IMG/VR virus record: IMGVR_UViG_3300008952_000003
Coordinates: 32,001 to 96,000 of that record
From: a virus
Length of the DNA stretch: 64,000 bases
Strand: one strand, 5' to 3'
Shown here: one piece after another, positions 12-7,272 of the stretch
Position numbering within the stretch: the stretch's first letter is position 1
Layout of the letters: every line of letters starts with the position of its first letter
Translations under genes and position numbers: made by a program
The notes under the pieces: generated by a model
Databases searched by the model: none
Seen by the model: only the letters and a program-made list of their open reading frames with translations
What the model was told of the DNA's origin: nothing

Positions 12-842
12 TTGAAGATAAGCTTTGCATGCAATTGGGGCGAAAACTCAGCAGGGTTGCTAGAAAAATATAGAAAACAGACACCAAATGATTCGGGAGT
101 TTGGGGTGAAATATCTGCCACTGAAAACCATTCGGAATCTGATTTTGTTGTTTTTTTAGGTAACGGCCCGCGCGGCCTTGGGCACTCCCTTGGTAAAACA
201 ATTCACTTCCGTAGAGAGCCAGATTTTATAGAGAGGCATTTTCCTATTTCCGATGCCTACAAAGCTTTCGATTATGATAGGTGCGGCTACCATGTTTCAA
301 CTTGGTTTATAGAGAAATCATTTGATGAACTTTCTGAGATGGAATATCCAACAAAAACAAGAAAAATAAGCGCGATATCCTCATCAAAGTGGTCTCATAG
401 AAATCATTTTTTACACTCCACCAGCGCCTTGTTTGGTCGTGGGGAGATTGATTTCTATGGTCGAGGCCTCGCCGCTGTCGTAGGTCCAGAAAACTATAAG
501 GGCCTGTTGAACTATAATAAAAATTGCAAGTTTAACGGGCTCGTTGATTATGAATATTCTGTAGCCATAGAGAACTCATCGCAGAGAAATTACTTTACAG
601 AAAAAATAATCGATTGCTTCTTGTCCTGGACAATTCCGCTTTATTGGGGGTGTCCAAATATTTCAGAATACTTCCCAGAGGGGTCTTATTATCTAATAAA
701 TGAGCCAAGGGATGTTCTGGAGGCCATTGAGAGGCCAATAGAAAAGGGAAACATTGAAGCCCTCAAAGAAGCTCGCAACTTGGTACTCAATGAATACAAT
801 ATATGGCCAACAATTGGAAACATTTTATCAGGAGAATACTAA
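12..842 (+). CDS. Glycosyltransferase family 10 (alpha-1,3/1,4-fucosyltransferase-like)
   Basis: GT10 motif YEYSVAIENSSQRNYFTEKIIDCFLSWTIPLYWG; IDFYGRG; TTG start with GGAG at 3-6; fcl and gmd nearby. Confidence 0.8.
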   Translation: MKISFACNWGENSAGLLEKYRKQTPNDSGVWGEISATENHSESDFVVFLGNGPRGLGHSLGKTIHFRREPDFIERHFPISDAYKAFDYDRCGYHVSTWFIEKSFDELSEMEYPTKTRKISAISSSKWSHRNHFLHSTSALFGRGEIDFYGRGLAAVVGPENYKGLLNYNKNCKFNGLVDYEYSVAIENSSQRNYFTEKIIDCFLSWTIPLYWGCPNISEYFPEGSYYLINEPRDVLEAIERPIEKGNIEALKEARNLVLNEYNIWPTIGNILSGEY

Positions 843-1574
843 ATGATAGCTATTTTATCTTTTCCAAGATCTGGAAACCACTTTACGAGATACATAATTG
901 AGTTTTTGACTGGGCGCCCAACTATTGGTTGCATGAAAAGTATGTCAACCGATCCAGCAAAAGATTCTCCCATATGTTGCAGAATCGGTCCAAAATTACT
1001 AAAACATGTCAAGTTGAATGACCCGATCGCTAGCAAATATCATTTTGTTTCCGGCTCACCCATTCCTGATTCTTTTGTGCCCATTGAAAGCACAGAAAAG
1101 CTTATTTTAATTTTGCGTCATCCGATAGAGACATGGTTATCACACAGATACGATAAATCTGGAGAAATATTTTCACCATCTACATTTTCAGAGGGTATGG
1201 AAGAGATAGCCACAAAAGACAGTGATAGGTTTTTAGATAATTTAAAGTTTTATGACAAATATGAAAAGCAGAAAATTTGCATTTTTTACGAGGATCTAAT
1301 ATCTTCAAGTCCGCAAGGAACTATTAAGAAAATAGCTGAATTTTTAGATATAGAGGGAGACATTGTTGAACATTTTATAAATAATATTGAAAAATTTAGA
1401 TTCGATAGCCTCAAATCAACCCACAGAAAACCAATATCAGCATTTTCAAATAACTCATCCAATTTCTACTCAGACAGACTTATGCAAGTCGACGAAGGGA
1501 AATATAGAGGCCTAAAGAGGATTTTCGAAAAAACTTTAGAACACCACTTGATCGAGGACAGATATGGACAATAG
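843..1574 (+). CDS. Sulfotransferase (Sulfotransfer_1-like)
   Basis: 5'-PSB loop SFPRSGNHFTR, 3'-PB-like ILRHPIETWLS, FYEDL...IAEFL. Confidence 0.75.
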   Translation: MIAILSFPRSGNHFTRYIIEFLTGRPTIGCMKSMSTDPAKDSPICCRIGPKLLKHVKLNDPIASKYHFVSGSPIPDSFVPIESTEKLILILRHPIETWLSHRYDKSGEIFSPSTFSEGMEEIATKDSDRFLDNLKFYDKYEKQKICIFYEDLISSSPQGTIKKIAEFLDIEGDIVEHFINNIEKFRFDSLKSTHRKPISAFSNNSSNFYSDRLMQVDEGKYRGLKRIFEKTLEHHLIEDRYGQ

Positions 1575-2178
1575 GGAAAATCTTATAAATATCCCCCCCA
1601 GTTGGCATTATTATAGATGTATTTTCGTTCCGATACCAAAAACAGGAACCACAAGCATAAGTCGGTTCATCGCAAAGCCCCACAACCATCCACATCCGGA
1701 TATTTTAGAAATAAAAGAAAATATGATACCAGAAAGATTTGAATCATATTTTAAATTTTCATTTGTGAGAAATCCATGGTCTCGCGCTGTTTCTATTTTT
1801 AAATCTAGGCCATATACGGAGAGGGCATGGTGGGGGCATAAAAGTGGGAATTTTGAAGAATTTGTGGACTCATATGATATGGCTTCTAAATATTGCAGAT
1901 TTCCTTCTGAAAAAAAGAATCAATTAGATTGGCTGTGTGACGAGAATGGTGACTTGCTGGTTGACTATGTGGGTAGGTTCGAGGACTTTGAAAGTGACGC
2001 CCTTGCGATATTCAAAAAGCTTGGGTTCACAAAGGAAAACCTCATAGTTCCACACGAAAACAAGCTGCACGGAAACAAAGATCACTATACATCCCTGTAC
2101 ACCGAGAAGACTATAGAGAAAATATATGAAAATTTTAAAAAAGACATTGAGTATTTTGGATACAAATTTGGAGATTAG
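1564..2178 (+). CDS. Carbohydrate sulfotransferase (Sulfotransfer_2 family)
   Basis: FVPIPKTGTTSI, FSFVRNPWSRAVS, DYVGRFEDFE, HENK...YTSLY. Confidence 0.85.
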   Translation: MDNRENLINIPPSWHYYRCIFVPIPKTGTTSISRFIAKPHNHPHPDILEIKENMIPERFESYFKFSFVRNPWSRAVSIFKSRPYTERAWWGHKSGNFEEFVDSYDMASKYCRFPSEKKNQLDWLCDENGDLLVDYVGRFEDFESDALAIFKKLGFTKENLIVPHENKLHGNKDHYTSLYTEKTIEKIYENFKKDIEYFGYKFGD

Positions 2179-2183
2179 GGCGC

Positions 2184-4822: not shown

Positions 4823-5484
4823 ATAGTCGATATGAAGAGCAGCACCACATAAATCACCCAATATCGTCAGCAACAAAGTGTTTTGTCAACCACAGTGAAA
4901 AATATCTCTACATAAATGTTCCAAAAAATGCTTCCACTTCTTTGCGTTCTACTATTTTATTTGAAGAATTTGCGCCATATAAATCATTTGAGGCTAGTGA
5001 ATATATAAAATTTATCGTATTTCGGAATCCTTTTGATAGGGTGGTATCCTCTTTCATGGAGTTAAAAAAACTCCGTCCAGATGGCCCCCGCAATATCACC
5101 CTAAACTCTGAATGGTATTTAGAAAAAAATTTACAGAAAAGTTTTGAGAAGTTTTTATATTTTATAGAGGATAATTTTTATGATGGTCATGTATTTCCAC
5201 AAGTCACTTTTTTGGATCATAAGGGCATTTCATTGAGTGATGTTGATGAGATACTGTTATTTGATACTCTTGAGGCCGATTGTGAGAATCTGATCAAAAA
5301 ATATTCACAAATAGTAAGCAAGTCAAAAAAATTGCAGCATCGAAGAAAATCTAGCCCCGCTCAGGTTGCGATATTGAGAAAGATGATCAATTCAAATACC
5401 GACATACACGAACACATTAAGCGTATTTATATAAAAGATTGTGAAATTTATGACAAATTAAATAAAACGAGGATCACCACATGA
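4819..5484 (+). CDS. Carbohydrate sulfotransferase (Sulfotransfer_2 family)
   Basis: [30 protein letters not shown]; the likely start is ATG 4819 after GGAG rather than 4780. Confidence 0.8.
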
Positions 5485-6452
5485 AGACAGCATTGATAAC
5501 CGGAGTAACTGGCCAAGATGGATCATATCTGGCAGAATTATTATTGAAAAAGGGATATAAAGTAATTGGCGTAAAAAGAAGAACATCACTTATTACAACA
5601 GATAGGGTGGATCATCTTTTTGATCACGAGAACTTCGAGTTGGTTTATGGAAACCTTATAGATGGTGGAAATATCCATAGACTACTGTTGGAGTATAAGC
5701 CGGCTGAAATCTATAATTTGGGCGCACAATCTCACGTCCGAGTCTCCTTCGAAACACCAGAAGAAACATCAGAAATTGTTGCCATGGGGACATTGAGATT
5801 GTTGGAAGCCATTAGAAATGTCTGCCCAGAAGCTAAATTTTATCAGGCGTCTTCATCTGAAATGTTTGGAGATAATCCCCAAAATCCACAAAGTGAAAAA
5901 ACGAGATTAATGCCCGCATCACCTTATGCATGCGCGAAAGTTTTTGCACACAATATAGTTAGAAATTACCGAGAAAGCTATGGGCTCCATGCTTCATCTG
6001 GGATCTTGTTTAATCACGAATCTCCTCGTCGTGGAGAAACTTTTGTAACAAGGAAAATAACATTGGCCGCAGCAAGAATCAAGCTCGGATTGCAGGACAA
6101 GTTATATCTTGGTAATCTAGATGCAAAAAGAGACTGGGGATATGCAGGAGACTATGTGGAAGCGATGTGGCTAATGCTTCAGCAGGAAGATCCTGATGAT
6201 TATGTCATAGCCACTGGAAAAAGTTATAGTGTTAAGCAGTTTTTAGAAACGGTATTTAAATATGCTGGTTTGGATGTCGAGAAGTATGTTAAAATAGATG
6301 AAAGATTGTTTAGGCCGCATGAAGTCCCACTATTGCTTGGCGATGCCTCGAAGGCAGAAAAGTTGCTTGGGTGGAAAAATAAAACTAGCATGCGTGACTT
6401 AGCTATAATGATGTATGAGTCTGATTTGGAAAGTCTAAGAAACAATGAGTAA
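5481..6452 (+). CDS. gmd: GDP-mannose 4,6-dehydratase
   Basis: [73 protein letters not shown]. Confidence 0.97.
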
Positions 6453-7272
6453 GATTTTAGTTACGGGACATCGAGGATATATTGGCTCTCACGTCTATGC
6501 AGAATTGTCGGATATGGGACACGATGTTTCTGGAATCGATTTGAAAGAGGGAGACGATATAATACACCGCCTTCCAGATGGGGAATTTGATTATGTTTTT
6601 CATCTCGCTGCTCTCCCAAGAGTCGAATATTCAGTTGAGAATCCATACTACACTGCAAAACAAAACGTTTTGGTTACCTCGAAGATATTAGAATGGTCCA
6701 AAAATCATGGCGTGAAAGCAGTTATTTTTTCATCATCATCAGCAGTCTATGGAGAGGGCCTCGGCCCAAAATCTCCGTATGGATTGCACAAATTAATGTC
6801 AGAAATGGAGTGTGATCTATATTCTGAACTATATGGGCTGAAGTGTGTGTGTCTTCGATATTTCAATGCTTATTCGGAAGATCAGGAATATGGAGGATCT
6901 TACTCTACTGTGGTCGCTGCTTGGATGCAAATGATAAGGGATGGAAAATCGCTTAGGATTGACGGCGATGGAGAGCAAAGTCGCGACTTCATTCATGTAT
7001 CAGACATAGTTAGTGCTAATATATGGTGTATGGAAAACATAGAAAAAATAGATAAACTGTGGTACGACGTCGGATACGGCGAGACGTGCAGCCTAAACGA
7101 TATAAAAGAGATAGTAGATAGGTTCAACGACGTAGTGTGGACAAAGGCACCAGAAAGAAGTGGAGACGTGAGGCACACAAAGATCGGCAATCAAAGGCTT
7201 CAGACGACTGGTTGGTCTCCCAAAATCTCAATCGATGAAGGGTTGAGTAGATGTTTTAAAAATTTAAAATAA
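6445..7272 (+). CDS. NAD-dependent nucleotide-sugar epimerase/dehydratase (extended SDR)
   Basis: [30 protein letters not shown] (YxxxK), [21 protein letters not shown]. Confidence 0.88.

Follow-up and report, generated by a model that had tools for sequence, protein, structure and literature searches.

Introduction

Genes for GDP-fucose synthesis (gmd, fcl) and for fucosyltransferases have been published from the marine cyanophages S-SCSM1 and S-SCSM2R, where they were read as serving modification of the host cell wall (PMC9602691, PMC12801897). In eukaryotic giant viruses, glycosylation of the chlorovirus PBCV-1 capsid (Vp54) and of the Megavirinae fibrils has been reviewed, and that review mentions neither sulfotransferases nor sulfated glycans (PMC9614988). 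Here we describe a phage operon that, judging from its genes, would build a glycan that is fucosylated, sulfated at several positions and probably methylated. It lies in a 193,157-bp virus record of IMG/VR (IMGVR_UViG_3300008952_000003) rated 100% complete by CheckV; the window referred to throughout is the stretch of 64,000 nucleotides covering bases 32001-96000 of that record.

Two further systems are relevant. In work by Freeman and colleagues (Cell Host Microbe, 2023), soluble glycosyltransferases encoded beside the structural genes of mycobacteriophages reportedly decorate capsid and tail proteins in the cytoplasm. In Rhizobium sp. NGR234, Nod factors are tailored by the fucosyltransferase NodZ (of glycosyltransferase family GT23), the sulfotransferase NoeE and the methyltransferase NoeI. 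For two decades, the glycan clusters of marine phages have been listed as 'lipopolysaccharide (LPS) genes' with no known target. Our literature searches for phage sulfotransferases returned a sole mention, that of sulfotransferase auxiliary metabolic genes, made in passing in an estuarine virome survey (PMC12285232). Relative to the literature found, fucose modules in marine phages are already published and sulfation is new.

Results

A 13.6-kb operon for a predicted fucosylated and sulfated glycan

The preliminary description of this DNA, made from the window, listed ten contiguous genes at positions 12-7272 and surmised that the cluster might extend upstream of base 1. All ten genes are real and nine of them had been named correctly, and the island does start about 5.5 kb upstream of the window, which adds five glycosyltransferase genes and a fifth sulfotransferase, ST2_a (Table 1; the upstream DNA is designated L002, in which a position equals the window position plus 12000). 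The operon spans 13.6 kb of the + strand, from its promoter to position 7272 of the window, and holds 16 glycan genes preceded by a PD-(D/E)XK nuclease gene. Among the glycan genes are six glycosyltransferases (GT4, GT4, GT-B-like, GT2, GT11 and GT10), five sulfotransferases, one FkbM-type methyltransferase, gmd, fcl and a GalE-like epimerase. Gaps between genes range from -52 to +15 nt. The perfect promoter just beyond the last gene opens a small-gene operon leading into the baseplate genes. A hydrophobicity scan found no transmembrane-like segment in any of the 16 island proteins, all of which look soluble.

The proposed route from GDP-mannose to GDP-L-fucose through Gmd and Fcl is well supported by family assignment. 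gmd passes the NCBIfam equivalog TIGR01472 (463.3 bits, cut-off 415) and scores 436.9 bits against PF16363. The top NCBIfam family for fcl, NF047922, is matched below its equivalog cut-off (271.6 versus 500 bits); since this is nevertheless the top family, and solved GDP-L-fucose synthases align with the whole protein (E 4e-87), the Fcl function is still likely. Fcl scores about 295 bits against human and other eukaryotic GDP-L-fucose synthases and about 189 bits against the E. coli enzyme. The last gene of the operon (PF01370, 161 bits) has a YGLHK catalytic motif, and among solved proteins it comes closest to UDP-glucose and UDP-GlcNAc 4-epimerases (E 4e-38). The Epimerase and GDP_Man_Dehyd Pfam matches of fcl, gmd and this epimerase all exceed the curated cut-offs.

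By family and motif, GT11 is predicted to be an alpha-1,2-type and GT10 an alpha-1,3/4-type fucosyltransferase. The cut-off is 23.9 bits in both cases (PF01531 for GT11; PF00852, matched with 38.8 bits, for GT10). The HIRRGD of GT11, at residue 141, fits the HxRRGD motif, and the ENS...YFTEK...PLYWG nucleotide-binding motif of GT10 aligns with residues 205-292 of the H. pylori alpha-1,3-fucosyltransferase (FucT) (E 2e-11); residues 1-150 of GT10, its N-terminal acceptor domain, have no detectable similarity to characterised enzymes. GT4a and GT4b match Glycos_transf_1 with 50.9 and 38.4 bits. The closest solved relative of GT4a is the chlorovirus glycosyltransferase B736L, and a sequence search of solved structures returned nothing for GT4b or for the 279-aa open reading frame (ORF). 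The 279-aa protein is a member of phage-only clusters and is often fused to GT2 in other phages.

Table 1. Features of the glycan operon and its boundaries (window positions unless prefixed L002; scores are Pfam bit scores unless another family is named)
Feature	Position	Strand	Remarks
Promoter	L002:5647-5674	+	perfect TG-extended sigma-70-type; 5' of PD-(D/E)XK nuclease gene
PD-(D/E)XK nuclease	L002:5720-6481 (window -6280..-5519)	+	first operon gene
GT4a	L002:6490-7755	+	
GT4b	L002:7704-9020	+	
GT-B-like protein, 279 aa	L002:9017-9856	+	placed by Atlas among phage GT-B-like proteins
GT2	L002:9843-10598	+	77.9 bits; DxD motif
GT11	L002:10580-11371	+	90.5 bits; HIRRGD
ST2_a sulfotransferase, 215 aa	L002:11368-12015 (3' end window 1..15)	+	Sulfotransfer_2, 64.9 bits
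GT10-family fucosyltransferase, 276 aa	12..842	+	TTG start; 4-nt overlap with ST2_a
Sulfotransfer_1-like, 243 aa	843..1574	+	PF00685, 30.2 bits; PRSGNH loop, RHP...S motif
ST2_b, Sulfotransfer_2, 204 aa	1564..2178	+	PF03567, 69.6 bits; phrog_3347; IPKTGTTS and RNPWSRAVS motifs
ST2_c, Sulfotransfer_2, 207 aa	2184..2807	+	PF03567, 26.8 bits; phrog_3347, E 4e-11; both PAPS motifs
In-frame deletion chimera, 117 aa	2820..3173	+	junction 2948-2951
FkbM-family S-adenosylmethionine methyltransferase, 235 aa	3170..3877	+	assigned by homologues and fold
fcl, GDP-L-fucose synthase (likely), 309 aa	3893..4822	+	GDP-4-keto-6-deoxymannose 3,5-epimerase/4-reductase; GxxGxxG and YxxxK
Internal promoter	4763..4791	+	sigma-70-type TTGACA-17-TATAAT, 12/12; within 3' end of fcl
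ST2_d, Sulfotransfer_2, 221 aa from corrected start	4819..5484	+	PF03567, 41.9 bits
gmd, GDP-mannose 4,6-dehydratase, 323 aa	5481..6452	+	TIGR01472; PF16363
GalE/WbgU-like NDP-hexose 4-epimerase, 275 aa	6445..7272	+	short extended short-chain dehydrogenase/reductase (SDR); last operon gene
Next perfect sigma-70-type promoter	7286..7314	+	3' boundary of the glycan operon

Five sulfotransferases with both cofactor-binding motifs

All five sulfotransferase ORFs score above the curated 22-bit cut-off of their Pfam families (PF03567 or PF00685), including the one Sulfotransfer_1-like and three Sulfotransfer_2 proteins that had been named in the window. Both motifs for binding 3'-phosphoadenosine-5'-phosphosulfate (PAPS) are kept in each: P-K/R-x-G/A-x-S/T for the 5'-phosphosulfate loop and R-N/H-P-x-x-x-x-x-S for the 3'-phosphate. 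They align, weakly (E 0.05-0.4), with those of heparan sulfate 2-O-sulfotransferase and 3RNL, and by sequence alone there is one invariant histidine near the N-terminus. For ST2_d the true start is the ATG at 4819 and not position 4780, given the AGAGGAG Shine-Dalgarno sequence ahead of it and its ATGA overlap with the fcl stop codon. From these features, several PAPS-dependent sulfations in the cytoplasm are a well supported prediction.

Sulfotransfer_2 matched none of 14 control prokaryote genomes and occurs in four places in this phage; relatives of ST2_b were found in 4 of 50,697 GenBank phage records, and a scan of viral contigs with a single-sequence ST2_b pattern gave nothing. A word-limited search of 5.8 billion clusters gave 16 for the ST2_a subfamily, and no cellular genome with a close ST2_a relative emerged when genome contigs were scanned with a single-sequence pattern. 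The Sulfotransfer_1-like gene is kept in the related contigs L011, L093, L094, L095 and LR756508.

One intact methyltransferase and turnover between strains

Of the two methyltransferase-like ORFs in the preliminary description, one stands and one falls. The 235-aa protein has no direct Pfam match; its 746 homologues include many with PF05050, at E values down to 1e-47, and PF05050 is found in 19 of 24 aligned members. Its AlphaFold model (mean confidence score, pLDDT, 90.8) finds class-I S-adenosylmethionine (SAM) methyltransferases as top Foldseek matches, led by EvdMO1, whose sugar O-methyltransferase domain was solved with S-adenosylhomocysteine and D-fucose. By homology and modelled fold it belongs to the FkbM family, and it is probably a sugar O-methyltransferase. 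The 117-aa ORF begins as the N-terminus of a small class-I methyltransferase-like ORF and continues as the last 74 residues of a 512-aa FkbM protein; its C-terminal piece matches PF05050 below threshold (16.2 bits, cut-off 22.7), and the chimera matches 178-aa and 511-aa ORFs of a sister phage.

The origin of this chimera is seen in a strain, L093, which by blastn shares 97% nucleotide identity with the phage over window positions 1-2951 and 2948-4812. L093 carries 1,711 bp extra at the junction, coding for a 177-aa ORF and the 512-aa FkbM protein, so that the 117-aa ORF is an in-frame fusion remnant and probably not a working methyltransferase. Read from this alignment, a 1.7-kb deletion relative to L093 has removed two methyltransferase genes, and methylation now rests on the one intact FkbM-type gene.

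A second difference is ST2_d, a 668-bp cassette (4813-5480) placed exactly at the gmd start codon, absent from L093 and with no counterpart there or in the sister phage. The fcl-internal promoter is kept in L093, where it stands directly before gmd; We rejected the view that ST2_d is a 'moron with its own promoter', as that promoter already drives gmd in L093. To the right of the insertion (gmd, the SDR gene and the small-gene operon; window 4813-8941) identity to L093 falls from 97% to 86%, which marks the locus as a recombination mosaic. The ST2_d insertion point also marks a recombination boundary.

A fixed slot with exchanged contents

The cluster had no megablast match among GenBank phages. 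In relatives located by way of island genes (L007, L009, L011/L012, L093, L094, L095 and LR756508), an island occupies the same slot and is differently composed. At 60-78% aa identity, the sister phage L011/L012 carries GT11-ST-GT10-ST1like (ST, sulfotransferase) together with a Gal3ST-like gene, FkbM genes and fcl-gmd-SDR; in L094 there are three sulfotransferases and FkbM is absent; and L095 (a 235-kb contig) and LR756508 (a 484-kb uncultured phage) combine sulfotransferases, GT10 and gmd/fcl. L007 and L009 carry instead genes for an aminotransferase, FdtA, TylF, GT47 and UDP-glucose dehydrogenase.

Because these relatives had been picked through island genes, the test was repeated with relatives chosen by the large terminase (TerL) alone, of which IMG/VR holds 429 (with identities of 71% or more for the best 80). 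Four picked in this way, two of them complete genomes and two long contigs, all keep PD-(D/E)XK-GT4a-GT4b on one flank and a Zn-ribbon operon with the baseplate hub on the other. Between these flanks, a pair of sulfotransferase-like genes plus a GT10-like gene is found in one type, while both kinds are missing from two types. The synteny survey proposed in the preliminary description has thus revealed a fixed slot with swapped contents between conserved flanks. Two cultured phages with hosts in separate phyla, Flavobacterium phage immuto (Bacteroidota) and Microcystis phage Mel-JY01 (Cyanobacteria), also carry PD-(D/E)XK-GT4-GT4 followed by other sugar genes. From these comparisons we consider what the phage carries best explained as an allele at a hypervariable locus for glycan synthesis, the defining locus of an abundant marine clade of T4-distant myoviruses, and they indicate that gene content turns over even at the strain level.

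More widely, modules of the GT10/GT11/gmd/fcl type are common among viral contigs, with GT10 relatives in 151 of them; in 80 fetched loci, sulfotransferases occur only alongside full-length GT10 matches. The PD-(D/E)XK nuclease lies beside the GT4 pair in every relative examined, including immuto, Mel-JY01 and LR756508, despite rearranged islands. An unrelated viral contig, L016 (IMGVR_UViG_3300031519_009791, 45.6 kb), has at 3212-12001 an island of GT61, GT7 (beta-4-GalT-like), GT25, GT11, Sulfotransfer_2, two Nucleotid_trans genes, a hexapeptide acyltransferase, GT10, FkbM and another sulfotransferase, a transferase set that looks strikingly eukaryote-like.

Genome setting and absent genes

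The genes are nearly all on the + strand, and 3' of the island lie genes for a baseplate wedge protein, giant fibre-like proteins, the large terminase and the portal, which identify a T4-like myovirus. Its TerL is 46-48% identical to those of immuto and Mel-JY01 versus 35% to cyanomyovirus TerL. The phage has no psbA, and a cyanophage identity was set aside on that ground. A Bacteroidota host was considered since TerL is nearest to that of a Flavobacterium phage; such a host looks unlikely in view of the strong Shine-Dalgarno sites and of promoters that match TTGACA-17-TATAAT perfectly. GC content in the island (0.33-0.42) is in line with the phage. No tyrosine integrase (PF00589) was matched in the complete genome, serine integrases not being part of the search, and the phage appears to be lytic.

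That donors come from the host, or from outside the window, had been proposed when the window alone was in view. The complete genome has no APS (adenosine 5'-phosphosulfate) kinase, ATP sulfurylase, NTP-transferase (manC) or phosphomannomutase (manB), so that PAPS and GDP-mannose come from the host; UDP-sugars and SAM must likewise be host-supplied. In a hydrophobicity scan of the 193 kb, run without family hidden Markov models for export proteins, no ORF had more than four hydrophobic segments, and hence there is no candidate Wzx, Wzy, WaaL, WecA/WbaP or Gtr-type protein and none for a priming transferase, flippase, polymerase, ligase or ABC transporter. The sole + strand ORF with four such segments (747 aa, segments at residues 457-600) lies at genome positions 116601-118844, beyond the end of the window (84601-86844 in its numbering).

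Among neighbouring genes, those at L002:3001-4335 and 1081-2309, 5' of the island, encode a PIN-PhoH fusion, a ClpP-like protease, a cytidylyltransferase-like protein and a fatty-acid-hydroxylase-family protein, in an order identical to that in L094. A 230-aa ORF at L002:4664-5356 (window -7336..-6644) has a sub-threshold ATLF metalloprotease-like match (24.1 bits versus a cut-off of 27.4), and its L094 homologue has the same faint match. The lytic domain of the baseplate-hub protein that follows the small-gene operon (window 9101-10480) varies among relatives, with a match to Phage_lysozyme2 in L011 and to Peptidase_M23 in L094.

Discussion

As a prediction from protein families, the chemistry encoded here is well supported: GDP-fucose would be made, fucose transferred by two enzymes, sulfate added several times and a methyl group probably once, through oxygen. 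For the acceptor, our best reading, at about even odds, is that the phage runs a cytoplasmic pathway decorating an acceptor of its own making, probably a virion protein. The conserved GT4-GT4(-GT-B-like-GT2) core would start the glycan on a conserved acceptor and the variable genes would finish it. The product in this phage would be a fucose-bearing oligosaccharide, O-sulfated at several positions and probably O-methylated, assembled in the cytoplasm of the infected cell from host donors. The acceptor would most likely be phage-made, with a virion protein as the leading candidate, and a glycan placed there would give the particle a strain-specific, strongly anionic coat. Such an acceptor is favoured by the soluble enzymes of an apparently lytic phage without candidate export genes, by the retention of the GT4 core in phages whose hosts belong to different phyla, by the position of the island next to the baseplate and fibre module, by the serotype-like turnover of its contents even between near-identical strains, and by precedents in chloroviruses, Megavirinae and mycobacteriophages. 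More tentatively still, the particles of this marine myovirus clade may wear a self-made, strain-specific glycan 'serotype', which in this phage would be a fucoidan-like, multiply sulfated fucose glycan drawn from host PAPS and GDP-mannose.

Several points weigh against a decorated virion. Decoration of the virion is a prediction from gene content, and it is family membership that suggests which sugar would be sulfated and that all five sulfotransferases would act on carbohydrate. The operon promoters are of the early type (host sigma-70) and not late, and the T4-type late promoter motif TATAAATA is not enriched, so that the timing of the operon is not tied to the late genes. Nearby Ser/Thr-rich fibres had been put forward as acceptors, a suggestion that now looks weak: a scan for Ser/Thr tracts gave no convincing acceptor, with 15-20% Ser+Thr in the structural proteins and no serine-rich-repeat tracts. 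In addition, lipid-linked primers such as undecaprenyl diphosphate (Und-PP)-GlcNAc are widespread across bacterial phyla, so that conservation of the GT4 core is compatible with a host lipid acceptor.

The early-type promoters and the ubiquity of Und-PP-linked primers both count for remodelling of the host envelope, in which the enzymes would modify, at the cytoplasmic face, the host's own lipid-linked intermediates of O-antigen, capsule or LPS core for export by host transporters, and the altered surface could block superinfection or the loss of progeny on debris. This is also the published reading of the GT10/GT11/gmd/fcl clusters in P-SSM2, S-SCSM1 and S-SCSM2R (PMC9602691, PMC12801897), and sulfated capsules are made by marine bacteria. 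We regard it as a serious rival, though a less likely one. The phage offers, by the hydrophobicity scan, no candidate priming transferase, flippase, polymerase, ligase, ABC transporter or polytopic membrane protein; with no PF00589 match either, it does not resemble temperate seroconversion of the Gtr or Oac type, and the missing integrase argues against lysogenic conversion. Export would require the host machinery to tolerate a glycan built by as many as six foreign transferases and five sulfotransferases, and the GT4 core is common to phages of Bacteroidota and Cyanobacteria, whose envelopes differ. The solubility of all the enzymes and the lack of export genes would also suit an acceptor that is neither virion nor envelope, be it a soluble or lipid-linked oligosaccharide, a small molecule or a non-structural protein of phage or host, with a product that might serve signalling, defence evasion or cytoplasmic protection. 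NodZ, NoeE and NoeI do fucosylate, sulfate and methylate one small glycan, and GT4a and GT4b match the Pfam family 'GT4 in conflict systems' above threshold. Six transferases and serotype-like turnover, however, fit an exposed polymer better than a metabolite, and the island has no chitin-synthase-like or acyl-transfer genes; we consider such a product improbable.

Phage glycosyltransferases often modify DNA, according to Pyle et al. 2024 as cited in PMC12619734, and glycan hypermodification of the phage genome, as in the glucosylated hydroxymethylcytosine of T4 or the multi-sugar DNA glycans of other phages, deserves mention for that reason. A PD-(D/E)XK nuclease gene at the head of the operon would fit it. 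The complete genome, however, has no match to a thymidylate-synthase-family hydroxymethylase (PF00303), and we know of no precedent for sulfated and fucosylated DNA. The DNA of immuto, which has the same GT4 core, consists of dA, dC, dT and fdPreQ1, with no glycosylated nucleoside reported (PMC10516641), and we regard DNA as a very improbable acceptor. As these enzyme families are typical of bacterial O-antigen loci, an assembly artefact that mis-joined host chromosomal polysaccharide genes into the phage contig also has to be weighed, as the preliminary description had noted. Phage genes stand on both flanks within the one complete record, and no fewer than six independent assemblies repeat the gene order, one of them being 97% identical in nucleotide sequence, which shows that the block is no mis-join; its GC content is like that of the phage, and the ST2_a scan found no close cellular relative. 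A mis-join of host DNA was rejected on the synteny data and retains a negligible probability.

The locus narrows the old question of the target, being wholly soluble, dependent on host donors only, and set in a fixed slot with turnover even at 97% identity; and since the GT4 core is common to two cultured phages, the target can be tested directly. Should the virion carry the product, sulfated fucans, which are anionic and hard to degrade, would join the viral surface repertoire and could affect how long particles persist, how they stick to marine gels, and their grazing and host recognition. No sulfated glycoconjugate would have been shown on a phage before, the locus would be a viral counterpart of bacterial O-antigen loci, and the draw on host PAPS would be a new kind of sulfur-related auxiliary metabolism. 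If the target is instead the host envelope, the operon would be an unusually elaborate superinfection-exclusion device in a lytic phage.

Among known systems, those of mycobacteriophages, likened here by description, have one to few transferases, an actinobacterial host and no nucleotide-sugar synthesis, sulfation or methylation. The Nod-factor pathway is alike in combining fucosylation, PAPS-dependent sulfation and O-methylation of fucose; its acceptor is a lipochitooligosaccharide and its GT23 transferase differs in family from GT10 and GT11. Bacterial O-antigen and capsule loci share hypervariable genes between conserved flanks and the same enzyme families, as in the Lewis-antigen synthesis of H. 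pylori by FutA/B (GT10) and FutC (GT11), with whose FucT the C-terminal motif of our GT10 aligns, whereas the present locus belongs to a lytic phage and lacks a candidate Wzx, Wzy, WaaL, ABC transporter or priming transferase. Chloroviruses and Megavirinae likewise have their own GDP-fucose enzymes, soluble glycosyltransferases, sugar methyltransferases and clade-specific gene sets, and their glycosylation is cytoplasmic; they are, however, eukaryotic giant viruses whose glycan is proven on capsid or fibrils, while here the virion is a candidate target (PMC9614988). The cyanophage 'LPS / cell-wall' clusters of P-SSM2, S-SCSM1 and S-SCSM2R also combine a lytic marine myovirus with gmd, fcl, NDP-sugar epimerases and several glycosyltransferases, GT10 and GT11 included, and their target is likewise a proposed one. 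The papers on these clusters report no sulfotransferases, of which our phage has five (PMC9602691, PMC12801897), and in contrast to the cyanophages it is without psbA, belongs to another lineage by TerL, and carries its locus in a fixed slot with conserved flanks.

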